Source: Candidatus Bathyarchaeia archaeon
Lineage (GTDB): Archaea; Thermoproteota; CALKCG01; B24
Assembly (NCBI GenBank): GCA_038870975.1
Contig: JAVZJD010000002.1
Span: forward strand, 5,922 to 69,921
Length of the DNA stretch: 64,000 nucleotides
Reading direction: 5' to 3'
Shown here one piece after another: positions 6,439 through 52,056 of the stretch. The position numbers and the translations under genes are program-made. Positions within the stretch are counted from its first letter, which is position 1. Each line of letters begins with the position of its first letter. Under the pieces are notes generated by a model. It worked only from the letters and a program-made list of their open reading frames with translations, ran no database searches and had not been told where the DNA came from.

Positions 6439-6493
6439 ACTATGTTAAAACATTTTCCAACGCGGCGTGATCATAATGGAGTATAAGCCTAGT

Positions 6494-8995: not shown

Positions 8996-9086
8996 CTTCT
9001 TCTAATAAGTTTAAGGGAGAATCTGTCTATTAAACATATTTTTATTTGGTTTGAAAAGAAAAATTGAGAGAAAAGAGATTTAGGAG

Positions 9087-11261: not shown

Positions 11262-11334
11262 TTATTATTTGAGGATTCACGTAAAAACTTTAAGGGGAAT
11301 GTTTTATATCCTCCTATGCTAGATTTTAAATGGC

Positions 11335-12339
11335 ATGGATATTGTAAGAGTTGGATTTATAGGTGCTGGAGCTATGGCTAATAGCGTCCATTACCCGTCG
11401 TTGGCCAGCTTTAGAGACGTTGAAATAGCTGCTATATGCGATTTACACGAAACTAGGCTTAAAGAGACTGCTGACCGTTATAATGTTGAGCAACGGTTTA
11501 CAGACTATAGGCTTATGCTTGAAAAGGTGTCTCTAGACGCTGTTTACGTTATTATGGCTCCAATACCTTCAGACCACTACGTGAACGCTGAGCCTTTAAC
11601 CAGTATCGTCGTCAACTGTCTTAAACGCGGTTTACACGTGTTCATAGAGAAGCCGCCTGGGGTATCGGTTGAAGATGCTGAGAAAATGGCTGAGGTTGCT
11701 GAAAAGAGCGGTTGTAAGACAATGGTTGGCTTTAACAGGAGGTTTATACCCGTGTTCAGAGAAGCTAAACGTATAGTTGAGGAAAACGGTTCCATAACGC
11801 ACTGTACGGCGGTGTTCCATAAGAATATGATAGGTCAACCTGAGCCTTGGGGTCGTGTAAGCCATCTAGTGGCTGACGTAATACATGCTGTTGATGCTTT
11901 GAGGTTTATGGGCGGTGAAGTGGATGAAGTAACGGCTTACGTTTGCCGCTTCTATGCGGATTACATGAACAGTTTCAACGCCCTCGTAAAGTTTAGGAAT
12001 GGATGTATAGGGCATTTATGCTCAAACTATTCTTCAGGTGGACGTGTACATTACTTTGAAATGCACTCTAAAGCTCTATATGCATTTGTTAACCTGCCCT
12101 TTGAGCCTGAAAAGCAGGAGGCTTTGATACTTAGAGGAGGGAAATCGTATGGTGAAGCGGAGGTTCTGAAGAACCTGGACTTAGTGGGAGGATGTAGAGA
12201 CTTCCATGTAGTCTACGGCTATCTTCAAGAGAATAGACACTTCATAGATTGCATTAAGAATGATGAGATGCCTGAGACAAACTTTAAAGATGCCGTTGAA
12301 ACCATGAAGCTCGTGGAGCGTATAAAGTCTTCTATCTGA
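11335..12339 (+). CDS. Gfo/Idh/MocA-family NAD(P)-dependent oxidoreductase
   Basis: N-terminal Rossmann motif VGFIGAGAMA, then EKP and GFNRRF motifs typical of the family. Confidence 0.75.
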   Translation: MDIVRVGFIGAGAMANSVHYPSLASFRDVEIAAICDLHETRLKETADRYNVEQRFTDYRLMLEKVSLDAVYVIMAPIPSDHYVNAEPLTSIVVNCLKRGLHVFIEKPPGVSVEDAEKMAEVAEKSGCKTMVGFNRRFIPVFREAKRIVEENGSITHCTAVFHKNMIGQPEPWGRVSHLVADVIHAVDALRFMGGEVDEVTAYVCRFYADYMNSFNALVKFRNGCIGHLCSNYSSGGRVHYFEMHSKALYAFVNLPFEPEKQEALILRGGKSYGEAEVLKNLDLVGGCRDFHVVYGYLQENRHFIDCIKNDEMPETNFKDAVETMKLVERIKSSI

Positions 12340-12350
12340 AGGGGGTCGAT

Positions 12351-13157
12351 ATGGAGATAATAGTCTTCGCTAAGATGTTTCAGAAGCTTCCACTACCGGA
12401 GTTCGCAAGCATTATGTCTGAAATCGGCTTTGAGGGTGTAGATTTAACGGTTAGACCTGGAGGCTATATAGCTCCTAGTGAAGTTGAAGAGAGACTTCCA
12501 GAAGCCGTTGACCTTCTGAAGTCTAAAGGCTTGTCTGTCCCAATGATAACTACGTCGATTGTAGATGCAAGAGAACCATATGCGGAAGAGACTTTTAAAG
12601 TGGCTTCAGAGTGTGGTATAAAGTATTTGAAGCTTGGTTATTGGCTTTACGAAGGTTTTGGGAAGTTGAAGGCTCAAGTGGAAGCCGTCCGTAGAAGTCT
12701 AAGAGAGATAGAGAAACTCAGTCGTAAGTACAACGTGACGGCGGCTATACATACACACTCGGGTATGTTTTTAACAGCCGAGCCGGCTGTCGTGTTAGAA
12801 ATCCTCAGAGACTTCAATCCAGACTACGTAGGAGCGTACATAGACCCCGGTCACATGGTTGTTGAAGGTGGATTGGCTGGTTGGCTCATGGGTATGGACA
12901 TGTTAAGCGAGAGAATACGTATGGTTGCGGTGAAAGACTTTGCTTGGATTAAAAGGGGCGGTTCATGGAATGCCGTAGTAGTACCACTTGGAGAAGGATT
13001 AGTTCCGTGGAGGGGGGTGTTTGAAATACTTAAGCTTATTGGTTTTAAAGGTCCGGTGTCGATACACTGCGAATACGAAGAAATGCCTCTTAGAGAGATA
13101 GTAGAACAGGCTAGGGGGGATTTAAACTACGTGAAGAACATCCTCAACTCTATTTAA
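12351..13157 (+). CDS. sugar-phosphate isomerase/epimerase (xylose-isomerase-like TIM barrel)
   Basis: Length and motif layout (GFEGVDL, AIHTH, IDPGH, SIHCEYE) match the AP-endonuclease-2/xylose-isomerase-like TIM-barrel family. Confidence 0.65.
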   Translation: MEIIVFAKMFQKLPLPEFASIMSEIGFEGVDLTVRPGGYIAPSEVEERLPEAVDLLKSKGLSVPMITTSIVDAREPYAEETFKVASECGIKYLKLGYWLYEGFGKLKAQVEAVRRSLREIEKLSRKYNVTAAIHTHSGMFLTAEPAVVLEILRDFNPDYVGAYIDPGHMVVEGGLAGWLMGMDMLSERIRMVAVKDFAWIKRGGSWNAVVVPLGEGLVPWRGVFEILKLIGFKGPVSIHCEYEEMPLREIVEQARGDLNYVKNILNSI

Positions 13158-13162
13158 AGATG

Positions 13163-14389
13163 TTAAATTTCACCGATGGATTCATCTTCATCTAACGTAA
13201 GCCTCATTAAATCCGGCTCTGGCGGCATTAGGTTTAGAAATTGCTCGGCAGCCCGTCTCGGCTCTTCACTTCCGACTATGTACCTTCCAACCACTACTAT
13301 ATCTGCTCCGTTTTTCAAGGCTTCGACGGAGGTTTTGGGGGTTATACCTCCTGCAACTGCTAGGAGGACTTTAAAACGGCTTTTAATCTCAGCTATTTCG
13401 TTCCACTTATATTCGACTGTTTTACCAGACTCTGCTGTCATTCTTTCAACGTCAGCGCTAACGTGTAGAAGCACTACGTCAGGCTTATACTCTAGCGTTT
13501 CAATTTTAGCTATCGGGTCTGAAACTTCCATAGTATCTAGAATCGAGTAGACTCCCTGTTTTCGTGCTTCAAGTATGGCTTTATCTATCGTAGTCTTCGA
13601 TGCGGCGGCGAGTATGCAAACAGCGTCTGCAGTAGCGTCGGCGGCTTCTTTAACCTCAACTCTCCCAACATCCATTGTTTTCAAGTCTGCAACTATGAAT
13701 GCGTCCCTCCAGACTTCTCTAATCTTCTCAATGGCTTTAACACCGTAGGCCTTTATGAGCGGTGTGCCAGCTTCAAGGATTACTCTTTCACTCCTAGGTA
13801 GTTGTTTAACTATTTCCAGGGCTTTCTCGAGACTACTCAAATCCAATGCTACTTGCAGGTACGGTGGACTCCAAAGCTTTTTAACTCTAAACCCCATAAT
13901 CGGGTGGACTGCTCTATCCTTCTCCTTGAGAACCTTTTCAACAGTTGGATATTCTTTTAGCGCTCTTCTCACGGCAAGCTTCGTAGCGGCGTAATTGAAC
14001 TGGTAGATTCTCCTGAAGTCTCTAGCCTTAGGATGCACGAAGACAGAGACTATTACAACCCAGTTTTCACACTTATCCCTTGGAATAACCCCCTCTTCAA
14101 CTGCATCAGCTATGGCTTTAGCAACAGCCGCTTGAGCTGGGCCGAAGACCTTCTCAGAGTCTTCCATACTTCTAACGGTGACTTTAGGCACTATGAGAGT
14201 GCTAGGCTTCACCGGTAGATTTGGCCTTAGTACGGCTAGCATAGCTGTATGTCCAGCGGATGGATTGGATAAAGCGTTTACAAAAGCTAAGCCAGCCGCC
14301 CCGCTCTTCTCTCCAAGCACTACATCGACGTGGGCAACTTCATAGCCTGAACCTATTAGAGCTTCCCCTACGTAGAAGCCTCTTTCCAA
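13163..14389 (-). CDS. fae-hps: bifunctional formaldehyde-activating enzyme / 3-hexulose-6-phosphate synthase (Fae-Hps)
   Basis: The N-terminal half ([23 protein letters not shown]...) is Fae-like. The C-terminal half (PYLQVALDL..., [23 protein letters not shown]) is an OMP-decarboxylase-fold HPS. Confidence 0.85.
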
Positions 14390-14563
14390 TTTACCACACG
14401 GTATACATAGTCGTTAGGATAATTAAAACTTTTGAAATGAATTGCTGTAAATACTGGCAGATCTACGTGGGGTTTGAAGGTTGTTTGTGGAAAACATTCA
14501 AAGGAAGTGGATGCATGTGAAACGTTTATTAATTTCCCGTCTATTCTATAGTTACGATTATAC

Positions 14564-15169
14564 ATGTCTACGGAACTACTCATACCTGGTGCTACAACAG
14601 TCGGCTTAGTGTTTAAAGATGGGGTTATACTGGCTTCTGAAAAACGCTATACTTATGGGCGTTACGTTTTAAGTAAAGCCGTTAAGAAGGTCTTCAAAGT
14701 GTCCGATAGAATCGGCGTAGCATGCGCTGGATTGGTTTCAGATATGCAGTCTGTAGTTCAGCTCATAGCGGCTAATATGAAGCTTTACGAGTTGGATACT
14801 GGAAGGCCATGTACGGTTAGAGCGCTTGCTAAGCTTACGTCTCAAATCTTATTCTACAGGAGGCTTTTCCCACTTTTAACGCAGACTTTAGTCGGCGGCG
14901 TGGATGAGGAAGGGGCAAGCCTATACATTCTAGACCCATTAGGGTCTGTGATAAAAGACGAATATGCCGTTGTCGGGTCTGGAGCTGAAATATCTCTAGG
15001 TGTTTTAGAGGCGGAGTATAGGCCGAATATGTTGCTTGAAGACTCTAGAAACTTGGTTATTAAGGGTATGCGTGCAGCTATGGCTAGAGATGCCACGAGT
15101 GGAGATGGTATAGACGTGCTTATAATAACTGGTGAAAGGACTTGGGAAGAGTCTATACCCGTGAAATAA
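14564..15169 (+). CDS. psmB: proteasome subunit beta
   Basis: A short propeptide is followed by the active-site Thr context GATTVGLVFKDGVILASEKR. Length is ~200 aa. Confidence 0.85.
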   Translation: MSTELLIPGATTVGLVFKDGVILASEKRYTYGRYVLSKAVKKVFKVSDRIGVACAGLVSDMQSVVQLIAANMKLYELDTGRPCTVRALAKLTSQILFYRRLFPLLTQTLVGGVDEEGASLYILDPLGSVIKDEYAVVGSGAEISLGVLEAEYRPNMLLEDSRNLVIKGMRAAMARDATSGDGIDVLIITGERTWEESIPVK

Positions 15170-15203
15170 CTTTTTATCCTTTTTAATCGTATCCTAATCT
15201 AGC

Positions 15204-15806
15204 ATGGTTATACTGGGTTTAGACTTAGCTGGTGTTGAAAGTAGACCTACAGGTTTCTGCATACTTCGGGATGACTTGGCTGTCGAAACGGGGCTTGCTT
15301 ATACGGATGAGGAAATCATGAGGATTATTCTGAGGCATAAGCCTTCCGTGACGGCTATAGACGCGCCACTGTTCCTTCCAAAAGGAAGGTCTTCGATTGA
15401 AGATCGTAGCGGTCCCCACCTGAGGAAGTGTGATAGGATTCTCCTGAATAGTGGTATAAGGTTTTTCCCGATAACCTTGGGACCTATGAGAAAGCTTACG
15501 TCTAGGGGCATGTCTCTAAAGGAGAAGATTAACGCTGTCGGCTTGGAAGTTATCGAGGTGTATCCCGGTGGGGCTCAAGACATCTTAGGAATACCTAGGG
15601 GTAAATCCAGTCTGGAGGGGTTAAAAAGCGGTCTTAAAAGACTCGGTTTAAAGGGGTTGAGAGAAGATTCATCTATGCATGAGCTTGACGCGGCTACCGC
15701 GGCTTACGTTGGGTATCTCTATTTCATAGGTGAGTATTTAGCTCTTGGAGACTCTTCAGAGGGGTATATGATTATGCCTAAATCTGGAAAATTCAGACTC
15801 TACTGA
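15204..15806 (+). CDS. DUF429-like predicted RNase-H-fold protein
   Basis: The N-terminal ILGLDLAG..RPTGFCIL pattern and overall size recall DUF429/COG2410. This is a call from memory. Confidence 0.5.
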   Translation: MVILGLDLAGVESRPTGFCILRDDLAVETGLAYTDEEIMRIILRHKPSVTAIDAPLFLPKGRSSIEDRSGPHLRKCDRILLNSGIRFFPITLGPMRKLTSRGMSLKEKINAVGLEVIEVYPGGAQDILGIPRGKSSLEGLKSGLKRLGLKGLREDSSMHELDAATAAYVGYLYFIGEYLALGDSSEGYMIMPKSGKFRLY

Positions 15807-15850
15807 AGGGAATAGTTAAGTTACTCTAATTCCTAAGTCTACTAGAATCC

Positions 15851-16723
15851 ATGTCTGCCACAGTTCCTTCGAAGAGAAAGTTTAAGCTTTCCGTAGCCTT
15901 ACCTGCGTCACTCCTCAGCGAAGCCGGCAGTCTTAGAGATAAGACTATTCGAGCTGGTTTTATAGGTAGAGCTTTAGCGGTATTCAGAGTTGATGAAGTT
16001 GTAATTTACAGAGACTTGTACGGTTTGAAAAATCAAGAGAGGGAAGCGTCTCTTATATCTTCTCTACTCTCGTATATGGAGACTCCCCAGTATTTACGGG
16101 TTAAGGTTTTCCCCATAGAGAAGAGCCTACAGTATGCTGGTATACTTCCACCGTTGAGGACGCCGCACCATCCGACTGTTGCAAAGGCGGAGGAAGTTTT
16201 AGATGGAGAGTTTAGAGAGGGGATAGTAGTATCCCATGATGGCTCTTCAAGCCTCGTAGATGTGGGTTTGGATAAACTGGTTAGAATCCCAGTTAGAGTT
16301 AAGACTGGTTTGAGGGTTACGGTTAAAGTGTTCAAGAAGGCTGACGGACTCATCGGCGAATTAGCGTCTAGAAAAAACATTCCAATCTACTGGGGTTACA
16401 GAGTTTTAAACATCAACCGTCCCATCGGAGGAGTCTTAGAAATCTACAAAGACGCGTTTAAAATCGCCACCTCGAAATATGGAGTACCTATAGTCGAAGT
16501 ATACGAAGAGTTGAAGACGCGTCTCACTGGAAACGCGAACACCTTAGTCTTATTCGGGTCGCCTAGAGAAGGATTAGCTGAGATTATGCTTAGAGAGGGT
16601 TTAAATCTTAAGGATTACGTGGATTTGACTGTAAACTTCATCCCTCATCAAGGCTCTGTAACAGTGAGAACTGAAGAGGCCCTTTATGCAGTATTAGCTA
16701 TATTGAACCTTCTAGCACCTTAG
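15851..16723 (+). CDS. SPOUT-superfamily putative RNA methyltransferase (DUF171/COG2106-like)
   Basis: KLSVALPASLLSE... start, an OB-like insert and a C-terminal LVLFGSPREGL knot-region pattern. This is a call from memory. Confidence 0.5.
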   Translation: MSATVPSKRKFKLSVALPASLLSEAGSLRDKTIRAGFIGRALAVFRVDEVVIYRDLYGLKNQEREASLISSLLSYMETPQYLRVKVFPIEKSLQYAGILPPLRTPHHPTVAKAEEVLDGEFREGIVVSHDGSSSLVDVGLDKLVRIPVRVKTGLRVTVKVFKKADGLIGELASRKNIPIYWGYRVLNINRPIGGVLEIYKDAFKIATSKYGVPIVEVYEELKTRLTGNANTLVLFGSPREGLAEIMLREGLNLKDYVDLTVNFIPHQGSVTVRTEEALYAVLAILNLLAP

Positions 16724-17952
16724 AAGGGTTTTAATTCGTCGATGTTTTCTCTCACTTTTTCAAAAGCTGCAACGATATCATCCATATCTTCCCTTGAACC
16801 CAGTAGAACGTACTGGGGAAGCCACATGCCTTCACTGTAGCAGGCTTTCTCGGATTTAGGTAGGTGTACTTTCGCATAATCTACATTCTTCCCGTAGAAT
16901 GGGCATGAGAGGGGGCATTTCACGTAGTAGTTTAAGTAGGGCTCTCTATACAGTGGTCTGCTGTAGCCTGGGCTTAAAGGTATGCCTTCGGCTCTTAAGA
17001 CCTCGGCGAACCTCGCTTTAGGTATACCGTTGAAGGCCTCTGGGTTGTATCTGAAAATGTACAGATGGTAGGCGTTTCTCGTGACTCTCTCGTCCCTCCT
17101 CATGGTTTTTAAACCGTCGATTTTAGAAAGTTTACTGTCCAAGTAGGAGGCATTCTCCATCCTCCGCTTTAAGTGCTCATCGTATCTTGAGAGTTGTACG
17201 AGTAGTATGGCTGCTTGAAACTCCGTCATCCTGTAGTTTCCTCCTGGCAGATGGTGTTCATACCATTCTCCAGTGGGTAGTCTGCCGCAATTGTGTAGAC
17301 TCCAGGCTTTAACGTAGAGGTCTCTATCGTTTGTAACTATAATTCCCCCTTCGCCGCTAGTTATGTTCTTACTCGATTGGAAGCTGAAGGCTCCTAAGTC
17401 ACCTATAGAGCCAACTCTTTTACCTCGCCACTCCGACCCCCACGCTTGACATGCGTCTTCAATTATCCTGAGGTCGTATTTTCTAGCTATGCGGGTTAAC
17501 TCGTCCATATTGGCTGGCCTCCCACCTATGTGGACTGGTATTATGGCTTTAGTACGCTCGGAAATATGTTCTTCAACGCTGTTCGGGTCTAAAGTGTAAG
17601 TGTCGGGCTCAATATCTGCAAAGACTGGTATTGCATTGACGTCTAATACAGCTGTGGCGGTCGCCATGAAGGTGTAAGGTGGCACTATGACTTCATCTCC
17701 GAATCCGATTCCACAGGCTTTAAGAGAGATTTCTAGTGCAGCTGTTCCGTTTGTAACCGCTACGCCGTACTTAGCATGTTGGTACTCTGCGAAAGCTTTT
17801 TCAAACTTAGGCTTCTTCGTCCCTCCTATACCCCAGGCTCCGCTTTCAAGGACTTCTTTCAAGGCGTTGTATTCTCTCTCATCGAATACTGGCCATTTTG
17901 GGAAAGGTTTTCTTCTGACTGGTTCTCCACCGTTGATGGCGAGTTTACCCAT
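16720..17952 (-). CDS. DegT/DnrJ/EryC1/StrS-family PLP-dependent aminotransferase
   Basis: Family pattern with GTAALE, IIEDACQAWG and the PLP-lysine context SFQSSKNITSGEGG. Confidence 0.8.
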   Translation of the reverse strand: MGKLAINGGEPVRRKPFPKWPVFDEREYNALKEVLESGAWGIGGTKKPKFEKAFAEYQHAKYGVAVTNGTAALEISLKACGIGFGDEVIVPPYTFMATATAVLDVNAIPVFADIEPDTYTLDPNSVEEHISERTKAIIPVHIGGRPANMDELTRIARKYDLRIIEDACQAWGSEWRGKRVGSIGDLGAFSFQSSKNITSGEGGIIVTNDRDLYVKAWSLHNCGRLPTGEWYEHHLPGGNYRMTEFQAAILLVQLSRYDEHLKRRMENASYLDSKLSKIDGLKTMRRDERVTRNAYHLYIFRYNPEAFNGIPKARFAEVLRAEGIPLSPGYSRPLYREPYLNYYVKCPLSCPFYGKNVDYAKVHLPKSEKACYSEGMWLPQYVLLGSREDMDDIVAAFEKVRENIDELKPF

Positions 17953-18059
17953 AGGAACACCTAGATATACTTTCTTTGAAGAAGTATTTAACTGTCTATC
18001 GTTTTGTAGAGTAGAGTAATGGTTAATAGGCTGGGCTACACTCCAGTAGATTTGAGGAT

Positions 18060-18815
18060 ATGATATTAGAAGTTAAGGATTTAAACGTTGAAGTTTCCGG
18101 TAGGCTCGTTTTGAAGGATATAAGCTTATCTATAGGTTTTGGTGAAGCGGTGTTCCTTCTTGGACCGAACGGCTCGGGTAAAACCTCTCTCATTCAGTCT
18201 ATTCTGGGAAACCCTGCCTATAGGGTCTTAAAAGGTAGTATCGTATCGCAGGGTTTTGAGATTACAGCGCTTAAACCGGAGGAGAGGGCTAAAATAGGCA
18301 TAGCCGCTTCATTTCAACTACCCCCTAAGATAAGGGGTCTTAAAGCAGGTAGACTTCTTGAGGAGGTTTCCAAGAGGTTTGACGTTGACAAGGGTTACGT
18401 TGATGGTCTTGTTTCAGCTCTCAAGCTCGGAGAGTTTATGGATAGGGAGCTCTACGTGGGCTTCAGCGGAGGCGAAGTGAAAAGGTTTGAGGTACTTCTA
18501 GCGCTTCTGCAGAAGCCTAAGCTCCTCCTCTTAGACGAGCCGGACTCTGGAGTAGACGTGGAGAATTTAGCGGTGATAGGTAAGACTTTAGACAGCTATC
18601 TCCATGAGGATGATGACCTTTTAAGCACTAGAAGGTCTATACTCATAGTGACTCACACTGGGGCTTTAGCCAAATACATCAATCCGTCGCGGGCATACAT
18701 CATGTTAAACGGTGAAATCGTCTGCTATGGTAAGGGTGAAGACGTTATCAAGAGGGTTTTTAGAGATGGATTTGAGAAATGTAAATCCTGCTATGAGAAG
18801 TTTAGAGGAGGATAG
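18060..18815 (+). CDS. sufC: Fe-S cluster assembly ATPase SufC
   Basis: Walker A GPNGSGKTS, ABC signature FSGGEVKR and Walker B LLLDEPDSGVD. It sits directly upstream of a SufB/D gene. Confidence 0.85.
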   Translation: MILEVKDLNVEVSGRLVLKDISLSIGFGEAVFLLGPNGSGKTSLIQSILGNPAYRVLKGSIVSQGFEITALKPEERAKIGIAASFQLPPKIRGLKAGRLLEEVSKRFDVDKGYVDGLVSALKLGEFMDRELYVGFSGGEVKRFEVLLALLQKPKLLLLDEPDSGVDVENLAVIGKTLDSYLHEDDDLLSTRRSILIVTHTGALAKYINPSRAYIMLNGEIVCYGKGEDVIKRVFRDGFEKCKSCYEKFRGG

Positions 18816-30772: not shown

Positions 30773-32023
30773 TTAAGTAGTACTATTCGATGTAGTGGAT
30801 TTTTCCAACCCTCTATGAGCCTGCATCAGTATTGCTAGTGCTACTGCTTGAGTTGAAACGGCGAATATCAGCGTTAAGACTGGTTGTACGTTGAAGTCTA
30901 TCATTAAGCCGTAGATGGCTCCGCTTGCTAGGAAGCCTACGCCGTAGGCTGCGTTGAAGATTCCATATGCCAATCCTCTTGAAGAGGTTTCTGTAAACGC
31001 TGAGACTGCTGCTCTGTATGTGGATTCTTGTACGCCTAAGACTACTCCGAAGAATATCGATGCGATTATTAGGGTTGTTAAGCCTGAGTTTAGCATCGTG
31101 AATACTGGTGGGAGTATTGAGAGTATGAAGGGTAGGGCTAGGATTTTAATGCCCAGTCTATCGTATAGGTATCCTGAGGTTAGGGCTGCTGGAGCGTCAA
31201 TCCCCTGGATTAGAAGGTATATTAGTGGAACTATCCACTGCTGTTGCTCCGGCTGTAGTATGGCTGAGGCTTTGTACAGTATTAGCGATGCGGGGATTAA
31301 ACCTACGGTGTTTAAAGTAACTGCTAGTGTGTAAACGTAGAATGGTTTTCTAAGGGCTTTATCGGCTTTTTTAACGTCTACTGTAGGCTCCAGTACTGTT
31401 TTAGAGCCTATTCTCAAGTATGTGTATGTTAATGCTGCTATGAGTATTGTGAACGGTATTGTCAGTATGCTGAAGCTCAACCTGTAGTTGTTTCCACTGT
31501 AGAGCATTAGCGTTGCCACTAGTAGTGGTCCTGCAACTGCTCCTACTTGGTCTAGGAATTCATGTATTCCGAATGCTTTACCTGCCCCCATTCCTCTACT
31601 CACTATGGATATGATCGTGTCTCTAGAGGGTGATCTACAGGCTTTCCCAAGTCTTTCAAGCAGTACTAGGATTGCCGCTATTTCCCATCCGTTTGCGAGG
31701 CCTAGAAGCGGTATGGAGGCTATAAGCCCATAGCCTATGAACATGAAGACCCAGTATGCTCTAGTGGTGTCCGCTAGGAAGCCGCTGATGAGTCTTGTAG
31801 CGTATCCTAGGAATTCTCCGAGTCCGCTGACGAGTCCTACGACGAATGCTGTAGCGCCTAGAAACTTCAGGAAGTCGGGTATTAGTCCTCTTGAGCCTTC
31901 GTATACTATGTCGCCCATTAGGCTTACTACTCCAAGGAGTAGGATGCTTACGTAGACGCTTCTCAATTCTATGGTGTGTTTCACGTTAGACCGCCAGTTT
32001 AAGCTAAGTATCGCATACTCCAA
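30773..32023 (-). CDS. MFS transporter
   Basis: About 12 predicted TM segments with a hydrophobic MFS-like layout. Confidence 0.65.
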   Translation of the reverse strand: MEYAILSLNWRSNVKHTIELRSVYVSILLLGVVSLMGDIVYEGSRGLIPDFLKFLGATAFVVGLVSGLGEFLGYATRLISGFLADTTRAYWVFMFIGYGLIASIPLLGLANGWEIAAILVLLERLGKACRSPSRDTIISIVSRGMGAGKAFGIHEFLDQVGAVAGPLLVATLMLYSGNNYRLSFSILTIPFTILIAALTYTYLRIGSKTVLEPTVDVKKADKALRKPFYVYTLAVTLNTVGLIPASLILYKASAILQPEQQQWIVPLIYLLIQGIDAPAALTSGYLYDRLGIKILALPFILSILPPVFTMLNSGLTTLIIASIFFGVVLGVQESTYRAAVSAFTETSSRGLAYGIFNAAYGVGFLASGAIYGLMIDFNVQPVLTLIFAVSTQAVALAILMQAHRGLEKSTTSNSTT

Positions 32024-32355
32024 CCATTAAAGTTTACTATTAAAGTTTAAACCTATTCTACGATATTTAGGGTTTGCCCTCTACTCTAATCGGTGGAAAT
32101 ACCTAGTCGACATCGCCTCCTTTATAACTTTAGGGTAAATATATAGGTGTAATTCAAATAGAAGGTGATAGTTCTTGTCCAAGAAAATAATACAACGCAT
32201 GAGAACTTTCTCTTCCATATTCAGGAGATCAACACCAGAAGTAGTGAAAAAACAAGTTAAACTACCCTACACATTCAGACCGATACTACCAGAGTATAAA
32301 ATATATCGAAACATACTGGATTAAAGAACCCCTCTCAAAAATAACCATAGCCTCA

Positions 32356-33858
32356 ATGCCCGAGCTCGGCGGAGCATACGGATACTTCATATCCGAAGTA
32401 GAACTTCTAGAAGAAGAGAGAAAAGTCACCGATAAACTCATAGACATGCTTTCATCAGAGCTAAAACCGCCAACGGTTGAAGAAGTAGACCTTAGAAAGC
32501 ACGTACTAGCCGAAGCCGAAAGAATCATAGGCAAATACCGTTCAATGCTATCAGTAGCTAAAGAAAGCAAAGAAAAAGTACTCTACTACGTCGAAAGAGA
32601 CCTATTAGGCTTCGGACCGATACACGCAATGGTTTTAGACCCTAGGATTGAAGACATATCATGCGAAGGCGTAGGAGGACCCGTATACGTATGGCATAGA
32701 GACTACGAAGGACTCCCCTCAAACCTAGTATTCTTAGACGCTAAATTCCTAGACGACCTAATAGTTAAACTCGCACACATAGGCGGTAAACACGTTTCAA
32801 CGGCATTCCCAATAGTCGACACCATGATATACGGTAAACACAGATTCGTAGCAACCTTCAAACGAGAAGTCACACCTAAAGGCTCTACATTCACGATAAG
32901 AAAATTCAGAGAAAAACCCCTATCGATAACCGAACTCGTAAAATCCCACACCGTAACCGCAAGAATAGCCGCATACTTCTGGCTCCTCCTCGAAAACAGA
33001 ATGTCGATAATCATCATAGGGGGAACAGGAGCAGACAAAACAACACTTCTAAACGGACTAGCAAGCCTAATAAACCCAGCGATGAAAATATGCACAGTAG
33101 AAGAAATAGCAGAGTTAAACCTATCACATGAAAACTGGGTTCAATTCGTAAGCCGTGAAAGCTACGGCATCGGAGGCGCTGCTTCAAGCGCCATACCGCT
33201 ATTCAGCCTTGTAAAGACAACACTCAGATACAGACCAGACTACATAGTCGTCGGTGAAGTAAGAGGAGAGGAAGCCTTCGTACTATTCCAAGCCTTAGCA
33301 ACAGGACACGGCGGAATGTGCACACTACACGCTGAAGACGTAGACTATGCGATTAAAAAGCTTACAAGCCCACCTATGAACGTAGCCGAAGTATACATAC
33401 CTCTTATGAACGTAGTCGTAGAAGTCGAAAGAGTACATCTACCAAAGCCTGTAAGCGGAGCTACATTCGGAAGAAGAGTTAGAGAAGTATCCGAAATCAT
33501 AAGCCACAAGGAGTTTCTAAAAGTCTTCTCATGGAACCCAATAACAGACGAATTCTCATCGAGGCTTGAGGAAAGCATACTACTGAGGAAAATAGCCCTT
33601 AAAACAGGTAAAGACTTCCAAGACCTACTCGACGAAATAGACAAGAGAGAAGTAATAATCAGATGGATGGTTGAAAAGGGAATATTCCAAAACGAAGACG
33701 TAGCCAAAGTAATATCGCAATACTACATATCGCCAGATGCAATCTACAACGTAGCATCCATGGAGCTAGCAGTACCGATAAAAATCAAACTACCTGCACT
33801 CGTGCAAATGGGTGAAAACCCATCAACGGAGAAGGAGGAAAGTCAAACCCCATCATAA
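32356..33858 (+). CDS. FlaI/VirB11/PilB-type secretion ATPase, N-terminally disrupted with an aberrant Walker A
   Basis: Walker B DYIVVGEVRGEEA and His box TGHGGMCTLHA are intact, but Walker A reads GGTGADKTT (Asp where Gly is expected, codon gac 33034-36). Homologous N-terminal coding continues upstream in another frame from the ATG at 32199. Confidence 0.7.
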   Translation: MPELGGAYGYFISEVELLEEERKVTDKLIDMLSSELKPPTVEEVDLRKHVLAEAERIIGKYRSMLSVAKESKEKVLYYVERDLLGFGPIHAMVLDPRIEDISCEGVGGPVYVWHRDYEGLPSNLVFLDAKFLDDLIVKLAHIGGKHVSTAFPIVDTMIYGKHRFVATFKREVTPKGSTFTIRKFREKPLSITELVKSHTVTARIAAYFWLLLENRMSIIIIGGTGADKTTLLNGLASLINPAMKICTVEEIAELNLSHENWVQFVSRESYGIGGAASSAIPLFSLVKTTLRYRPDYIVVGEVRGEEAFVLFQALATGHGGMCTLHAEDVDYAIKKLTSPPMNVAEVYIPLMNVVVEVERVHLPKPVSGATFGRRVREVSEIISHKEFLKVFSWNPITDEFSSRLEESILLRKIALKTGKDFQDLLDEIDKREVIIRWMVEKGIFQNEDVAKVISQYYISPDAIYNVASMELAVPIKIKLPALVQMGENPSTEKEESQTPS

Positions 33859-47037: not shown

Positions 47038-47217
47038 CTACTGGTAGTTGGTAGAGTCATACATTCGAACAGCATGACTTGTAATCTCTAAAGAACAGGA
47101 ATAATACTTAGAGCAGAACTCCTCACATTTTTCAGCCCAAGTCTCCTCTCTATAGGCGAGACTACACTCTTCACAAATGTATAAGGACTCACCTTTCCTC
47201 TCTACCCTCTTCACCAT
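47038..47217 (-). CDS. small Cys-rich protein (59 aa), not in the ORF track
   Basis: Translation: MVKRVERKGESLYICEECSLAYREETWAEKCEEFCSKYYSCSLEITSHAVRMYDSTNYQ. It has CxxC plus four more Cys and starts 23 nt after the ACR3 stop on the same strand. Confidence 0.45.
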   Translation of the reverse strand: MVKRVERKGESLYICEECSLAYREETWAEKCEEFCSKYYSCSLEITSHAVRMYDSTNYQ

Positions 47218-47240
47218 GATAGTTAGACGCCTCCTACCAA

Positions 47241-48263
47241 TTAAGAATCTACGCTAGAGAAATATTTTCTGGTTTTTAAGGCTATTTTCACGAATGTCAG
47301 CATAGACGGGACCTCCCATAATGGGCCGACTACTGTTGCTAAGGCTGCCTCTGAACTAGCACCGAAAACGACTGTAGCTGTTGCTATGGCAACCTCAAAT
47401 TGAGTACCTGAGCTTATAAAAGCGATGGTTGAGGCATCTTTATAATTGAATTTTAAGAGCCAAGGTATAATGTAGAAAAGGGAGGACATAATAAAGAAAT
47501 GTAGTAGCAATGGTATTGAAACCAAGCCTACTAAAAGAGGCTGATCAGCAATCGCTCCACCCTTTAAGGAGAAAAGCATTATAACAGTAATTAGTAAAGC
47601 TAGAGCCGCAGTATTCCCTATAAGTGGGCGAAATTTGTTATCAAACCACTCTTCCCCCTTTCTTGAGACGAGAATTTTTCGCGACATTTGCCCTGTAATT
47701 AATGGTAGACCGACAAACAGAATCACACTCTTTGTAATTAGTGTTATTGGAACTGGTATTCCTCCGATTCTGAGGTAGAAAGCTGCAAGAGGTGCATAAA
47801 GTATTAGAGTCGATAAAGCATTTATCGCGGTTATCACGATACCTTTAGCTACGTCGCCCTGCGCCAGTAGAATCCAGAATAAAACCATCCCGGTGCATGG
47901 CGCTATTCCAAGCAGAATAACACCAGACGCGTATCCTGGATAGCTACTTAAGAATAAGTGTGCCAGTAGAGCCATGAGCGCTGGGGCGACAGCCCAATTA
48001 CCTATTAACGTAAGGATTGTGGGTTTGGGAGACTTAGCAGCTTTCACTATCTCCTCAAACTTTATGTTCACCATTGTTGGATACATTAGGAGGAAGAGAC
48101 ATACCCCCATGGGAATCGATATATCCCAAACCTGAAGAGACCCAATCCATAAACCTAACTCTGGAAAGAACCTACCTAATAGAAAGCCGGCAATCATGCT
48201 AAGAACAACCCACAGCGTAAGGTATTTTTCAAATGAACCTAAAACTGTTCGACTTTCAGACAT
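47241..48263 (-). CDS. acr3: ACR3-family arsenite efflux permease
   Basis: FEKYLTLWVVLSMIAGFLLG start, LMYPTMVNIKFEE motif and about 10 TM segments. Confidence 0.8.
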   Translation of the reverse strand: MSESRTVLGSFEKYLTLWVVLSMIAGFLLGRFFPELGLWIGSLQVWDISIPMGVCLFLLMYPTMVNIKFEEIVKAAKSPKPTILTLIGNWAVAPALMALLAHLFLSSYPGYASGVILLGIAPCTGMVLFWILLAQGDVAKGIVITAINALSTLILYAPLAAFYLRIGGIPVPITLITKSVILFVGLPLITGQMSRKILVSRKGEEWFDNKFRPLIGNTAALALLITVIMLFSLKGGAIADQPLLVGLVSIPLLLHFFIMSSLFYIIPWLLKFNYKDASTIAFISSGTQFEVAIATATVVFGASSEAALATVVGPLWEVPSMLTFVKIALKTRKYFSSVDS

Positions 48264-48290
48264 GCTTGCCTCCTCTACTGACCATCCGTT

Positions 48291-49526
48291 TTAATGGGTC
48301 TCCTTAACTTTATCCGCAAGCAATCTGCCAATCTCTACAACCCGTTTAAGAATCTCTTCAGTAGGTGGACCGTTCACCTCTAACACATCGACAACCTCAA
48401 CCTTAAACTGTCCAAGCAACTCTTGCATATGTTTCACCGCACTCCCACCCCAGCCGTAAGAGCTTAAGAATACGGCGTACTTTGTCGGTGGACGTAAAAC
48501 CCTCATGAGATATGCAACATAAACAGCCAACGGATGAGCACCGCCTAAAACAGTTGAACCACCTAAAACAACAGCTCTAGAGTCTACAAGGTCTTTAATA
48601 AGGTCTCCAACATCGGTCACCGTTAAATTGTGAAGAACCACTTCAATACCTTCCCCAGCGAGTACCTCAGCCATCTGCTCAGCCATATGCTTAGTACTAT
48701 CCCACATACTCACATAAATTATCGACACCTTTCGCTTAGTTTCACCATTCACCCACTTCCTATAAGCATCTAGAATGACCTCAGGCTTCCTATGAATAGG
48801 TCCGTGGCTCGGAGCTATCACTTTAACGTCTAAGTCCTTCAACTTTTCCAACCCCCTCTGTGCCATGGCTCTAAAAGGCATCATTATCTCACCCCAATAC
48901 TTTTGAGCATGTATGAGTAGATCTTCAACATCATCGCCATAGATTCCCTCAGCTAAGTGAGAGCCGAAGAAATCGCATGAAAAAAGTATTCCATCCTCTT
49001 CAACGTAGGTAAACATCGTTTCGGGCCAGTGAAGCATAGGCGCCTCTATAAAACGTAGAGTTTTCCCACCGAGGCTTAACCTCTCTTGATCGGCAACCAT
49101 CTTCATCCTCTCCTCTGAAACATTGTAAAAAATTCGAGCCATTTTTACCCCTCTACTTGTCGCTACAAGCTTAGCCTTCGTAGCGACCTTCATCAGATAT
49201 GGTATAGCACCCGCATGATCGGGCTCAGCATGATTCATCACAATATATTCTATTTCCCCGGGATCTACTAGACTACGGATCTTTCTTTCAAGCTCTCGCT
49301 CGAAACCTGGGTTCACCGTATCTATTAACGCATTCTTCTCTTCCCCCAGCACAAGATAGGCATTATAAGACGTTCCTCTTGGAAGAGGAATTAAAGCATC
49401 GAAAAGCCTACGGTTCCAGTCTTTTACACCAACCCAGTAGACGTTTCTTGAAATCCTAAAAACGTTCCCCTCAATCGTATAATCATCACCACATACTGTA
49501 GTGGATGAAAACAGGTATTTAAGCAT
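48291..49526 (-). CDS. fprA: flavodiiron protein (FprA-type O2/NO reductase: metallo-beta-lactamase plus flavodoxin domains)
   Basis: Di-iron motif NHAEPDHAG in an MBL fold, and a C-terminal flavodoxin-like KVSIIYVSMWDSTKHMAE. Confidence 0.8.
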   Translation of the reverse strand: MLKYLFSSTTVCGDDYTIEGNVFRISRNVYWVGVKDWNRRLFDALIPLPRGTSYNAYLVLGEEKNALIDTVNPGFERELERKIRSLVDPGEIEYIVMNHAEPDHAGAIPYLMKVATKAKLVATSRGVKMARIFYNVSEERMKMVADQERLSLGGKTLRFIEAPMLHWPETMFTYVEEDGILFSCDFFGSHLAEGIYGDDVEDLLIHAQKYWGEIMMPFRAMAQRGLEKLKDLDVKVIAPSHGPIHRKPEVILDAYRKWVNGETKRKVSIIYVSMWDSTKHMAEQMAEVLAGEGIEVVLHNLTVTDVGDLIKDLVDSRAVVLGGSTVLGGAHPLAVYVAYLMRVLRPPTKYAVFLSSYGWGGSAVKHMQELLGQFKVEVVDVLEVNGPPTEEILKRVVEIGRLLADKVKETH

Positions 49527-49857
49527 GATTTAATACATGTAGATGAAGAGTTAAAGGAAGTAATCATAGATGGATAGGAGATAACATTTTTCCCTAGATT
49601 TTTCTGGTTTTCAAGGCTTTATTCGTCGGTTTAAAGTTTATCGAGAAATTGAAACTACTCCTTGATGGCATCGGAGTTGACGTGCATAATTGGCTAGTGT
49701 CTTTCACCCAGCAGATTTTTTAAAGACTCTGGGGCAAGTAAACATTTGTTTCATCATAGAGGTGAAGTAGAATAAACCTCACCTGTTTTCAGTTGATGAA
49801 AGCATATTTCTGAAGATTATGGGCTTAGCAGTACATTCTCTTTGGGCGTTTGACCAG

Positions 49858-50379
49858 TTAAACGGTAGACCTTTTAATCTTAGGAAGAGTTTCAATAGTA
49901 AACTTGGCGATTTGTTCTTTTGTAAGTCCGTACTCCCCATTCAACTTACTTATTTTACCCTGTTTAAACATAGATGCAAGAGTATTATAGACTGTTTTCA
50001 AGGCTTTATTCGTTGTTTTAGCGAGCTCAGACGGTGTCAAAGACTCTTTACTCAGTTTTCCAAGTCTAAAACCTAAGTAGGCTCCTACTAAGCTCAGCAT
50101 TATAGCGTCTTCAGCGGATAAATCCGTTCTCTTAAGAACTACTCCATTATCTGTTACTTGGAGAAATTCAGAACATTCTCTGATAAGCGTGTCAAAGTTG
50201 GGCTCGAAGACTATTTTCGAAATCGCCTCATAAGACGGGTATACTTTAGAAAGCCATTCAAAGAAAGCCCTTAAAACAACGTCAGACTCGCCTTTGAAAG
50301 TTGCTTCTAAAGAGCCTATTTTAACATTCAACTCTATACTACTCAACAAGTTCACCTTTAAGCCTAGGTGCAACTTCAC
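49858..50379 (-). CDS. two-domain wHTH protein, paralogue 1 of a four-member local family
   Basis: The N-domain IELNVKIGSLEATFKGESDVVLRAFFEWLSKVYP aligns with the other three. The C-terminus is helix-turn-helix-like (LTPSELAKTTNKALKTVYNTLASMFKQGKISK). The likely start is the TTG at 50346, overlapping the upstream stop. Confidence 0.6.
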   Translation of the reverse strand: MKLHLGLKVNLLSSIELNVKIGSLEATFKGESDVVLRAFFEWLSKVYPSYEAISKIVFEPNFDTLIRECSEFLQVTDNGVVLKRTDLSAEDAIMLSLVGAYLGFRLGKLSKESLTPSELAKTTNKALKTVYNTLASMFKQGKISKLNGEYGLTKEQIAKFTIETLPKIKRSTV

Positions 50380-50836
50380 TTATGAAGTACTTCAACCCCT
50401 TCGAAGTAATCCTATATTCGCCTCTTTCCACCTTCTCGACAAGATAACCATTCTGAAGCTCACTAAGTCTAGCGCTGATAGAACTTTTAGATTTACCCAA
50501 TCTTCCAGAGATCTCTTCAAGTGAAAGTGAAGCCTTATCGGATTTGCCGAATAGGTAGGCGAGATATTTAACGATCAAAACTAGTAGACAGCCTTCGAAA
50601 ATAGTCAACTTCTTCATATCGGCTAAAACAGTGGGTTCAGGATGTACTGTAACTAAATCCTTTAAACCCTTGGAGACCTCCTCTAAATCCAAGCTTAGAG
50701 TCAAATTTTTCACAAGGCTGAAAGTCGGATAGACGTCTGATATGAATTTGATAAGACTTCTCAAAACCTGCTCGGCATCCCCTGAAAACTCCAACTCTCC
50801 ACCCTGGAATGAGACTTTAACTTTAACCTCGCTCAT
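50339..50836 (-). CDS. two-domain wHTH protein, paralogue 2
   Basis: N-domain VKVKVSFQGGELEFSGDAEQVLRSLIKFISDVYP and C-terminal winged helix LSLEEISGRLGKSKSSISARLSELQNGYLVEKVERGEYRITSKG. It overlaps the upstream gene by 4 nt. Confidence 0.65.
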   Translation of the reverse strand: MSEVKVKVSFQGGELEFSGDAEQVLRSLIKFISDVYPTFSLVKNLTLSLDLEEVSKGLKDLVTVHPEPTVLADMKKLTIFEGCLLVLIVKYLAYLFGKSDKASLSLEEISGRLGKSKSSISARLSELQNGYLVEKVERGEYRITSKGLKYFISEVAPRLKGELVE

Positions 50837-51381
50837 AACATTCCTCCCCTAATCTTTGGGATAATCATCTTCTCAACCCACATTTGACCTTGAGCTGAAA
50901 GCTTCCACACGACATCCTTCGGGTCAGGCTTGAAAACTCTACCCGATTCAGCCATCTCCTTAAGTCTAGCTGACACGTTTGAAACCTTAAAGCCCGAATT
51001 CTGCAAAAGTAGAGCTATAGTTTTAGGGTCAGACTTCTGCTCTTTAAATGCATAAAGTAGCAAACCTATAGCTTCATACTGGCTTAACTTAGCCTTCTCC
51101 GAAGCCACTATCAAAGGACCGTCAACGCTCCACTCAATCAAACCCTCTAATAGGTTAGATGTCTGTGGAGCCTTTTCAGCAGCCTCGAAATGCTTGAACG
51201 TAGAAGGCTGAAAATCCTCTACAGTCAAACTACTTTTAAGTAACTCCTTAAAACCCATTGAAGAAGCTTCTTCTAAAGCCGTTTTAACAAGGCTGAGCTT
51301 TTCACGGAGTTCTTCAACCGTTGAAAACTCAAACTCTAGAGAGCCAAACCAAGACCGGAAGATCGCTTTTACTCCGCTCAT
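50833..51381 (-). CDS. two-domain wHTH protein, paralogue 3 (first gene of the trio)
   Basis: N-domain FRSWFGSLEFEFSTVEELREKL and C-terminal IALLLQNSGFKVSNVSARLKEMAESGRVFKPDPKDVVWKLSAQG. An AT-rich 224-nt upstream region precedes it. Confidence 0.6.
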   Translation of the reverse strand: MSGVKAIFRSWFGSLEFEFSTVEELREKLSLVKTALEEASSMGFKELLKSSLTVEDFQPSTFKHFEAAEKAPQTSNLLEGLIEWSVDGPLIVASEKAKLSQYEAIGLLLYAFKEQKSDPKTIALLLQNSGFKVSNVSARLKEMAESGRVFKPDPKDVVWKLSAQGQMWVEKMIIPKIRGGML

Positions 51382-51605
51382 ATCTGTAGAAAAGATTAGA
51401 TAAACCAGTATATAAATCTATTCAAAAAATCCTTTAAAATTCCCATATTTAAAAACACTTACATAACCTTTTTACCATAATTTTCACGGATAAAAAAGGC
51501 GTGGTAAAATATTTAGGAATAAACTAGGAAAATTTTATTTAAATTCTACATGGTTTTATCCATAAAACAGTTAATATTTCCTCCATTGAATACTTAAGTG
51601 AAAAC

Positions 51606-52010
51606 TCACAAACTTGGAGGCTTCTTCTGAATATACACGTATTTACCCTTTCTACCGCCTCTATACAGTATATCGCTTCTAACTAAATCAGCTAAAGTAT
51701 GCGCAACAGCAGTCCTATCGTAGTGGAAGCCACGTTTACTGAGCTCTTCATGAACATCGCTGAGCGTCCTCCCAGTACTAAACCATCCGGTCCTCCAAAG
51801 ATTGAGTAGAACACCCCTGCAAGTTGATGGAGTGGGCTCTTTAACAATTTCAAACTCAGGCTTACTAAGCTCTCTATCCAGTAGAGAGACGTTTTGAAAT
51901 GCACTTAGAAATTCTTCAACAGTCTTCTTAAGCTGGTCTTCTCTACACTCAATCTCTGCTTCGACTCCTTGATACTTTAACTTTATCCTGACTTTTCTAT
52001 CGGATTCCAT
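51606..52010 (-). CDS. two-domain wHTH protein, paralogue 4, divergent from nurA
   Basis: N-domain RKVRIKLKYQGVEAEIECREDQLKKTVEEFLSAF and C-terminal RTLSDVHEELSKRGFHYDRTAVAHTLADLVRSDILYRGGRKGKYVY. I prefer the ATG at 52010 over the ORF-track start at 52049, which would cover the TATA element. Confidence 0.6.
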   Translation of the reverse strand: MESDRKVRIKLKYQGVEAEIECREDQLKKTVEEFLSAFQNVSLLDRELSKPEFEIVKEPTPSTCRGVLLNLWRTGWFSTGRTLSDVHEELSKRGFHYDRTAVAHTLADLVRSDILYRGGRKGKYVYIQKKPPSL

Positions 52011-52048: not shown

Positions 52049-52056
52049 CTTATAAG
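52049..52056. promoter_or_regulatory. palindromic TATA-like box cttataag shared by the divergent promoters
   Basis: It lies 32-39 nt upstream of the nurA ATG (52088) and 39-46 nt upstream of the paralogue-4 ATG (52010). That spacing fits archaeal TATA-to-TSS distances with very short leaders. Confidence 0.4.

Follow-up and report, generated by a model that had tools for sequence, protein, structure and literature searches.

A 64-kb stretch of contig JAVZJD010000002.1 from a Candidatus Bathyarchaeia archaeon (hereafter the window, in whose coordinates all positions are given unless another locus is named) carries four minus-strand open reading frames (ORFs) between 49858 and 52049. These genes, here called A to D, were originally predicted to encode four paralogues of an unplaced family, and the ORFs and their overlaps are borne out by the ORF listing, with products of 134–182 amino acids (aa) that lie close to the 133–182 aa first given. 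What was overlooked in the original prediction is the context of the genes: the set makes up one half of a conserved module, the other half of which consists of the divergently oriented genes for a NurA nuclease and a HerA-type ATPase (Table 1).

Genes A, B and C are closely interlocked. The ATGA at 50833–50836 is common to the TGA of C and the ATG of B and has GGAGG 5 bases upstream, and the stop codon of B (50339–50341) precedes, on the window numbering, the most likely start of A at TTG 50346, 8 nt inside the end of B. This start, first proposed as probable, is now backed by the orthologues, which begin MSSIE or MSEIE at that codon, and by a preceding Shine–Dalgarno-like AGGTGA; GTG 50379 is possible within the ORF and was rejected because the orthologous starts correspond to TTG 50346. 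Likewise, ATG 52010 was preferred to an upstream GTG as the start of D because D orthologues begin MESDRK or MENRK.

The NurA and HerA domains of the window are intact and their genes adjacent and overlapping. HerA contains both a Walker A (GMTRSGKST) and a Walker B (VIEEAQ) motif and is matched by the PADLOC HerA models and by Pfam FtsK_SpoIIIE, and members of the NurA cluster carry the NCBI name 'DNA double-strand break repair nuclease NurA'. No Mre11 or Rad50 ORF was found downstream of HerA or in the inspected stretches of the window, the rest of the 64 kb being unannotated.

Assembled contigs from one sediment metatranscriptome cover 49729–51370 (A, B and C) at 95–100% identity, and one of them spans the C/B overlap; RNA coverage ends at 51370, and in the same metatranscriptome there is no contig for D and one short contig for NurA. 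These contigs are supportive of C-B-A expression, and the TATA-like box upstream of C predicts a nearly leaderless C-B-A transcript from what would be the promoter of the three genes. The gene overlaps, with their Shine–Dalgarno-like sequences, and the C/B-spanning contig fit the coupled production that had been read from the gene arrangement; that the products also meet in a stoichiometric heteromer would be a further step.

Table 1. Genes, promoter elements and related clusters (window positions unless a locus is named)
Feature	Position	Strand	Remarks
Gene A, A-type paralogue, 162 aa	49858-50346	-	TTG start; predicted N-terminal beta-beta-alpha and C-terminal winged helix; second in the B-then-A pair
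Gene B, B-type paralogue, 165 aa	50339-50836	-	first of the pair; shares ATGA with C and 8 nt with A
Gene C, C-type paralogue, 182 aa	50833-51381	-	residues 76-179 homologous; N-terminal 75 residues diverged
Gene D, D-type paralogue, 134 aa	51606-52010	-	short form without the middle helices; RGGRKGK basic wing
NurA nuclease, 382 aa	52088-53236	+	divergent from D; Pfam NurA, E 8e-18
HerA-type ATPase/translocase, 514 aa	53233-54777	+	Pfam DUF87/HerA, E 3e-12; 4-nt overlap with NurA
TATA-like box TTTATATA	51409-51416	-	centre ~31 nt upstream of the ATG of C; read from sequence
Perfect palindrome TTGTTGATTG-tt-CAATCAACAA	52022-52043		putative operator; between the TATA box and the start of D
Palindromic TATA-like box CTTATAAG	52049-52056		inside the 77-bp D/NurA intergenic region
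TAACGTTA array, locus L082	7386-7421		upstream of C-type TATA box
TAACGTTA array, locus L120	2845-2874		upstream of C-type TATA box
TAACGTTA array, locus L097	5737-5765		upstream of C-type TATA box
TAACGTTA array, locus L114	3340-3357		upstream of C-type TATA box
TAACGTTA array, locus L008	5887-5904		upstream of C-type TATA box
TAACGTTA array, locus L107	5072-5095		upstream of C-type TATA box
Variant cluster, locus L014	1082-5592		in order: 145-aa family member; 173-aa protein with ECK motif; PD-(D/E)xK-like::module fusion (376 aa); superfamily 2 (SF2) helicase; TIR-like::C-type module fusion (274 aa)

Homology and fold of the four proteins

By profile comparison, A, B, C and D are homologous paralogues. 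Three-sequence profiles of A and B align over their full length (hhalign probability 98.7%, E 1.5e-16), as do the two proteins in pairwise BLASTP (E 1.5e-17), in which the B–C and B–D matches are weak. The A/B/C/D-type family was defined by an alignment of 103 sequences (A2), to whose profile residues 76–179 of C align with a probability of 97.9% (E 3.9e-13); C also has the C-terminal ...IPKIRGG end common to the family, and a C-type hidden Markov model (HMM) gathers A/B-type proteins by its second iteration. D alone is co-linear with the family profile from the N-terminal beta-beta-alpha to the wing (probability 82.6%, E 1e-5), and a D-family profile built from 38 orthologues in related loci is co-linear with it over 135 columns, including the N-terminal beta-beta-alpha (probability 97.9%, E 5.9e-13). 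In the window the family profile matches A at E 1e-50, B at 5.5e-55, C at 5.8e-14 (its C-terminal two thirds) and D at 6.5e-5, and in the metagenome-assembled genome (MAG) BA1 all four cluster members match it over their full length (E 7e-22 to 5e-61). The claim of four paralogues thus stands. The accompanying claim, that all four begin with an alignable module of ~35 aa, holds for D, whose profile is co-linear through the beta-beta-alpha, and is not supported for C, whose N-terminal 75 residues show no significant alignment to the family in the window lineage. In each of the four proteins the N-half is acidic and the C-half basic, and D has a near-invariant Cys where helix 1 of its winged helix begins, with a second Cys in the D1 subgroup.

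The fold was examined with an AlphaFold2 model of B, computed from alignment A2 (predicted local distance difference test (pLDDT) 89.9, predicted template-modelling score (pTM) 0.76). In the model, strands 4–10 and 13–19 are followed by helices 21–35, 37–45 and 51–58 and a small hairpin, and then by a winged helix with the canonical H1-S1-H2-H3-S2-wing-S3 order and helix 3 as the recognition helix (helix 79–95, strand 103–105, helices 106–113 and 117–129, wing hairpin 133–143; pLDDT 96–98) and a C-terminal helix (145–164). The helix-turn-helix with beta-hairpin wing that had been read from the C-termini is therefore present both in the model and in profile matches to PDB sequences, which comprise the winged helices of CooA, IdeR, AspA, Lrs14 and SmtB (E 6e-6 to 1e-3) and are confined to positions ~100–165, the AspA match extending over winged helix plus C-terminal helix (E 1.6e-5). 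Two details of the original description need amending. The 'hydrophobic helix' placed in a variable linker corresponds to the conserved helix 1 of the winged helix (B residues 79–95), and 'two-domain' is too strong a term: modelled alone, the N-terminal 78 residues of B reach only pLDDT 71.9 and pTM 0.43 and are confident to residue 35 only, so that the N-terminal part, being confident only in the full-length model, probably packs on the rest of the protein and is not a free domain.

No family could be assigned to the N-terminal part by any of the searches (Pfam, NCBIfam, PDB sequences and Foldseek), as had been stated at the outset. The PDB sequence profile search returned no match for positions 1–95. 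With the full B model, Foldseek against PDB and BFVD returned winged-helix regulators only, none at E<=1e-3; the best whole-model match had E 1.4e-3, and over the 'full' alignments (TM 0.33–0.44, root-mean-square deviation ~13 Å) the winged helix alone superposes. The N-terminal part alone gave a best E of 1.6, with GB1-like and Lsr2-dimerisation-like beta-beta-alpha matches at E 2–7 that are not significant. None of A to D reached a curated Pfam or NCBIfam cut-off (best 12–18 bits against cut-offs of 22–35 bits), C having no match at all and D a chance-level Sld5 match only; of 103 family members, at most 17 matched any one Pfam family, with no E value below 5.5e-6. These results indicate a previously undescribed family and N-terminal part joined to a C-terminal half that is an ordinary winged helix.

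Several assignments were rejected on the same grounds. Membership of the MarR, TrmB, ArsR-SmtB or IclR types is contradicted by the unreached cut-offs and by the dissimilar whole-protein fold; the possibility raised originally, that these are ordinary MarR/TrmB paralogues with unrelated regulons, is further opposed by the joint occurrence of the genes as a single set. In one source B is labelled 'ArsR family regulator'. PADLOC matches A and B through generic winged-helix parts only, and NurA, C and D match none of its models. The weak PADLOC matches of B to Csa3/CARF-wHTH and AbiEi are limited to the winged helix (residues 92–156), and Csa3/CARF-wHTH membership was dismissed because the N-terminal part is a beta-hairpin-helix of ~35 residues plus helices and not a Rossmann fold of ~130 residues. 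For SIR2-HerA, DUF4297-HerA and MADS mad8, PADLOC matches the HerA ATPase only, with no cognate effector or partner. The GINS/Sld5 match of D (E 0.064) is attributed to chance, D being co-linear with the family.

Distribution of the family and its linkage to NurA-HerA

An exhaustive HMM search over 1.84 billion representatives yielded 398 clusters (50% identity) at E<=1e-3, of which 126 reach E<=1e-10. Nearly all clusters are full-length matches of 160–175 aa, and a further search with a broad alignment added almost nothing to them. The named members come from Bathyarchaeota/Bathyarchaeia MAGs, and hot-spring metagenomes contain the window's own DNA. Two long proteins recovered in the family search are probably not true members: both are repetitive and owe their scores to many short repeats, P0175 (581 aa) being a chain of ~7 winged-helix repeats and P0073 (2105 aa) matching profile positions 12–52 only. 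Loci were then collected by scanning one genome per GTDB species with a degenerate DNA pattern (RL[ST]E[LM]-x11-GxY[KR][IL]TxxG) followed by local HMMs, which gave at least 71 loci with a strong family match, retrieved as 8-kb blocks; all counts out of 71 refer to the matches listed. Haloarchaeal and bacterial pattern matches (HMM E 1e-4 to 1e-9) were discarded as unrelated winged helices. The 71 loci are labelled Bathyarchaeia or equivalents ('Crenarchaeota 13_1_40CM', 'Thermoproteota', Hecatella, RBG_16_50_20), with one labelled 'Nitrososphaerota' and three labelled as bacterial MAGs, which are taken to be mis-binned. Confinement of the family to Bathyarchaeia, as far as sampled, is thus firmly supported by these searches.

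The same loci give equally firm support to a fixed paralogue set. At least two adjacent family members are present in 70 of the 71, often together with C- and D-type genes. A neighbour-joining tree was built from 143 distinct proteins of 81 loci that have exactly two strong members (the 71 scan loci together with loci fetched earlier). First-in-pair (B) and second-in-pair (A) proteins separate in it in 143 of 143 cases, as two clades spanning 71–72 loci each, and the gene order is invariant; A and B from the same locus are only 28% identical. As the split between the clades is perfect and both copies have been kept in order, the B/A duplication probably predates the sampled radiation, in line with the ancient duplication that had been suggested.

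NurA and/or HerA lie inside 42 of the 71 blocks, and a further 25 blocks are cut too near the cluster to tell. Three layouts recur. D points away from NurA-HerA, with C-B-A behind it, in the window, B24, L005/L010 and L019 lineages; in BA1, L017, L138 and many others, C-B-A-D are followed by NurA and HerA on one strand; and in L110, L132 and L046, B-A lie on one strand with D divergent from NurA. Wherever both are in view, D is the family gene nearest to NurA, and in most loci it is directly adjacent (26 divergent locus records, which include redundant copies and represent 16 distinct promoter sequences, and ~8 co-directional loci); in L021 a second nuclease gene lies between D and NurA. The partners belong to two NurA-HerA subfamilies that are ~20% identical to each other. 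The window pair is orthologous to the pair beside Mre11-Rad50 in L021 (HerA 445 bits), and the second, very divergent subfamily (NurA2-HerA2) is the partner in most family loci. Both occur in L021, in which 8490–18525 is one co-directional string of C, B, D, NurA2, HerA2, NurA1, HerA1, Mre11 and Rad50, and the L017 contig carries an additional NurA gene. Within a HerA type, pairwise identities across loci of B and of A correlate with those of the adjacent HerA (r = 0.95 and 0.99, respectively), B and A evolving somewhat faster than HerA (mean identity 48% and 45% versus 59%). These comparisons firmly support a genetic coupling of the family, across dozens of Bathyarchaeia species, with NurA-HerA of one or the other subfamily.

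The flanking genes vary from locus to locus and are of a housekeeping type (ribosomal proteins, aminoacyl-tRNA synthetases, thermosome, Nop56/fibrillarin, GatDE), and no integrases, CRISPR arrays or other defence genes were found near the inspected loci. The NurA2 of L021, where two NurA-HerA pairs stand side by side, is 355 aa long and has no Pfam match on record. One partner HerA (L019 2569–6525, minus strand, also in L020; 422-kb contig) is 1318 aa long and contains two inteins (Pfam Intein_splicing twice, plus LAGLIDADG). A protein of 231–243 aa without a Pfam match recurs on the opposite strand in or beside the family cluster (minus strand, L002 6961–7692, L019 8171–8866 and L035 3128–3868); its N-terminus reads as HTH-like, and it is absent from the window.

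Fusions and variant clusters extend the associations of the family. In P0090/P0125, the fusion of the L014 cluster, an N-terminal domain of ~200 aa is joined to an A/B-type module; the domain is termed PD-(D/E)xK-like from a reading of its PDG...ELK motif alone. P0036 combines a Ser/Thr kinase with two tandem modules in a single chain, P0082 a module with DUF488, and P0173 a membrane anchor with a C-type module. In the L014 cluster the helicase is of the SF2 ResIII/XPB type (PbeA-like in PADLOC), and the TIR-like fusion, which has one PADLOC TIR effector match (E 8e-12), ends its C-type module with VIPKLRGK; PDB sequence searches with the N-terminal domains of the L014 fusions gave no match. 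Two small winged-helix-like proteins lie on the opposite strand of that locus (5611–5982 and 5979–6593). The tandem modules of P0036 support a pairing of B with A, and the enzyme fusions, together with the replacement of NurA-HerA by another nuclease-plus-motor combination in L014, suggest that the module works physically with enzymes and keep a defence role open.

Downstream of A on the same strand (47038–49526), the window encodes a flavodiiron protein (ODP metallo-beta-lactamase plus flavodoxin), an SBF/ACR3-type transporter and a 59-aa zinc-ribbon protein that scores just below the DUF7128 cut-off; conservation of these genes does not extend to more distant relatives. Elsewhere in the window, at ~32000–32360, the AT skew switches from about −0.19 to +0.28 where genes go from the minus to the plus strand (divergent pair 30773–32023/32356–33858), an ordinary coding-strand effect.

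Promoter palindromes

The palindrome between D and NurA, to which the original prediction had already pointed as a binding site to be probed, is real: it is perfect, with 10-bp arms and a 2-bp spacer, it is unique in the window, with neither a second copy nor half-sites elsewhere in the 64 kb, and none of 100 shuffles matched it. It lies 5 bases from the neighbouring TATA-like box towards D and covers the expected transcription start of D. That box may serve both divergent genes, in which case the palindrome would sit just upstream of a shared TATA box on the nurA side, in a suitable position for blocking or recruiting TFB; archaeal regulators bound upstream of a TATA box can do either.

Comparison of orthologous promoters shows the TATA box followed by (A/G)TGTTG in all 16 distinct sequences. 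The orthologous D/NurA spacers have a palindrome at the same position, with lineage-specific arms that are kept while the spacers vary: the window group and B24 have TTGTTGATTG, the L019 group has TTGTTGA-n4-TCAACAA and the L061 group TTGCGCA/TGCGCAA. Co-directional operons contain a putative operator type different from that of the window, namely two to four TAACGTTA palindromes at a spacing of 10–11 bp, which directly precede the TATA box of the leading (C-type) gene; such arrays occur in at least seven species, against a background of 0.5 near-matches per kb. Upstream of C in the window, the only palindromic element is a 7-bp inverted repeat (GTTTTAT-gg-ATAAAAC, 51553–51568), which is not conserved in B24; it lies just downstream of the D stop codon, is found also in the close relatives L005 and, in part, L010, and has no terminator-like T-run. 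Conserved palindromes in the set's own promoters are thus firmly supported by the alignments and are hallmarks of what would be operators for dimeric winged-helix proteins.

Possible roles of the set

HerA-NurA corresponds in archaea to the end-resection machines by which homologous recombination is initiated and, to our knowledge, its targeting and restraint are poorly understood. We propose, at about an even chance of being right, that A to D make up a heteromeric DNA-binding partner of NurA-HerA that regulates its own genes, controls nurA-herA and may, in addition, steer the enzyme on DNA or hold it back. Sequence-specific DNA binding would fall to the basic C-terminal winged helices, and B and A, probably with C, would be co-produced from their overlapping genes and assemble as a hetero-oligomer by way of their acidic N-terminal beta-hairpin/helix part. 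The palindrome over the D transcription start, on the upstream side of the nurA-herA promoter, would be bound by one or more of the four, D being the likeliest, by which the set would regulate itself and control nurA-herA. The set may also dock onto DNA together with NurA-HerA and so target or restrain it. The analysis shows the homology, the fold, the ancient duplication, the linkage, the conserved promoter palindromes and the presence in RNA-derived contigs; DNA binding, heteromer formation, the identity of the operator binder and physical contact with NurA-HerA are inferred.

Several considerations weigh against this proposal. The putative recognition helix of D, HYDRTAVAH, barely changes between lineages whose operator arms differ, so that D may not be the operator binder or may read only the common TGTTG. 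The RNA evidence consists of assembled, unstranded contigs from a single run, for which DNA carry-over is possible. Four of the 71 blocks have a B-A pair with at least 2.5 kb on both sides and lack NurA-HerA, one of them with D at the contig end. Finally, four regulators are unusual for a two-gene operon, such that pure regulation may be too little to explain them, and equally there is no sign of contact with NurA-HerA.

Alternatively, the proteins could be purely transcription factors, a small cascade or a heteromeric repressor, perhaps responsive to damage or redox state, that switches nurA-herA and itself and has no part in handling the DNA substrate. This alternative, which we think somewhat unlikely, draws on the generic winged helix with its AsnC/ArsR-like recognition helix, on the palindromic operators conserved in the set's own promoters, on the classic regulator–target layout of D divergent from nurA, on the near-invariant Cys of D and its second Cys in the D1 subgroup, which would suit a thiol switch, and on the 'ArsR family regulator' label of B. 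However, three to four paralogues in fixed order and overlapping genes throughout the group are far above the normal need of a two-gene operon, the module is fused to PD-(D/E)xK-like, TIR-like, DUF488 and kinase domains, and the different motor-plus-nuclease combination in L014 suggests physical teamwork with enzymes. A bolder reading, unlikely in our judgment, is that the four paralogues form a hetero-oligomeric, sequence-reading DNA clamp physically joined to NurA-HerA that decides where, or on which DNA, the nuclease-motor acts. If that reading were true, the set would represent a new class of specificity or licensing subunit for a machine of the FtsK/HerA superfamily, either as a Chi/KOPS-like guide in archaeal recombination or as the sensor of a new archaeal immune system, and in the TIR-like, nuclease-like and kinase fusions this sensor would act through other outputs.

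Whether the module serves genome maintenance or conflict is weighed on two groups of observations: the housekeeping neighbourhoods, vertical-looking inheritance, intein-bearing HerA and Mre11-Rad50 link favour the former, and the TIR-like, nuclease-like and kinase fusions with the second NurA-HerA pair favour the latter. We rate as decidedly improbable the explanation in which NurA-HerA, and NurA2-HerA2 in particular, is the DNA-degrading effector of an anti-virus or anti-plasmid defence with the winged-helix set as its sensor and safety catch, by analogy with HerA-based defence in bacteria and with the CRISPR-linked nurA-csm6-herA of Thermoproteales. The TIR-like and PD-(D/E)xK-like fusions beside a PbeA-like SF2 helicase in L014, the kinase and DUF488 fusions, NurA2-HerA2 beside the canonical pair in L021, the additional NurA gene of L017 and the weak resemblance of the B winged helix to Csa3/CARF-wHTH and AbiEi would all suit such a system; yet the neighbours are housekeeping genes, with no integrases, CRISPR arrays or defence genes near the inspected loci, inheritance looks vertical and tightly coupled to HerA, the window lineage has the canonical, Mre11-Rad50-type pair as its partner, NurA, C and D match none of the PADLOC system models, and one HerA has two inteins, elements typical of core information-processing genes. 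A role as adaptors in chromosome organisation or segregation, in which the winged helices load or orient an FtsK/HerA-superfamily motor at particular chromosomal sites, appears very improbable indeed. HerA belongs to the FtsK-HerA pumping ATPase superfamily (as in its Pfam FtsK_SpoIIIE match), the AspA match covers winged helix and C-terminal helix, and tandem promoter sites at 10–11 bp resemble iterons or centromere-like arrays; against this, the window palindrome has no second copy in the 64 kb, AspA is matched no better than ordinary regulators are, NurA as a nuclease is not an obvious segregation component, and there is no ParA-like gene nearby.

With archaeal winged-helix regulators (ArsR/SmtB, Lrs14, TrmB, MarR, Lrp/AsnC HTH_24) the family is alike in the C-terminal ~65 residues, with H1-S1-H2-H3-wing and an 'S-x-S/T-x-R-L-S-E-L' recognition helix, and like many archaeal repressors the window set has a palindromic site in its own promoter between TATA box and start; unlike them, its N-terminal ~95 residues (beta-hairpin, three helices and small hairpin) have no counterpart, and unlike single homodimeric regulators it occurs as fixed sets of two to four paralogues. 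The canonical herA-mre11-rad50-nurA operon has overlapping genes as the window pair does, and that pair is orthologous to the L021 pair beside Mre11-Rad50, but mre11 and rad50 were not found downstream of the window HerA and most family loci use NurA2-HerA2. In FtsK and in archaeal partition, a winged helix likewise specifies or nucleates a P-loop motor machine of the FtsK-HerA or ParA type, as the FtsK gamma domain reads KOPS (FtsK-orienting polar sequences) and AspA nucleates the partition complex; the likeness is one of concept only, as the window winged helices are separate proteins with generic similarity (AspA E 1.6e-5) and binding to the motor is hypothetical. Paralogous NurA-HerA pairs with other accessories, among them sensors, are known (PMC3396285), as in the CRISPR-linked nurA-csm6-herA clusters of Thermoproteales, which likewise keep such a pair alongside the recombination pair and have a dedicated small accessory or sensor in the cluster; there, however, the accessory is the CARF-family Csm6 beside CRISPR arrays, whereas here that role would fall to four winged-helix paralogues that lack a CARF fold, and no CRISPR array lies close by. 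Defence complexes of HerA with an effector are also on record (PMC11291478, PMC11472057); in the bacterial SIR2-HerA and DUF4297-HerA systems, whose PADLOC HerA models match the window HerA, HerA is similarly paired with an effector that attacks nucleic acids or NAD, but those are two-gene systems with no winged-helix set, and here the effector is NurA and the genomic setting is housekeeping.

Literature searches found no described winged-helix partner of NurA-HerA, no description of the family and no work on NurA-HerA in Bathyarchaeia; the papers found describe neither a winged-helix accessory set nor any other dedicated DNA-binding accessory protein for the HerA-NurA resection machinery. Of the components, the winged helix and NurA-HerA are of known kinds; what is new is the family with its N-terminal part, its organisation as four paralogues and its linkage to NurA-HerA. 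For annotation, the family fills a gap of ~400 clusters (50% identity) that are now 'hypothetical' or mislabelled 'ArsR', and, as an old set of paralogues that probably functions as a heteromer, it presents a clear-cut case open to testing. The module combines four paralogues in fixed order, two alternative NurA-HerA partners and conserved operators. Bathyarchaeia are abundant, uncultured archaea of sediments and hot springs, and a module that they retain so tightly probably matters to the maintenance of their genomes or to their resistance to viruses.

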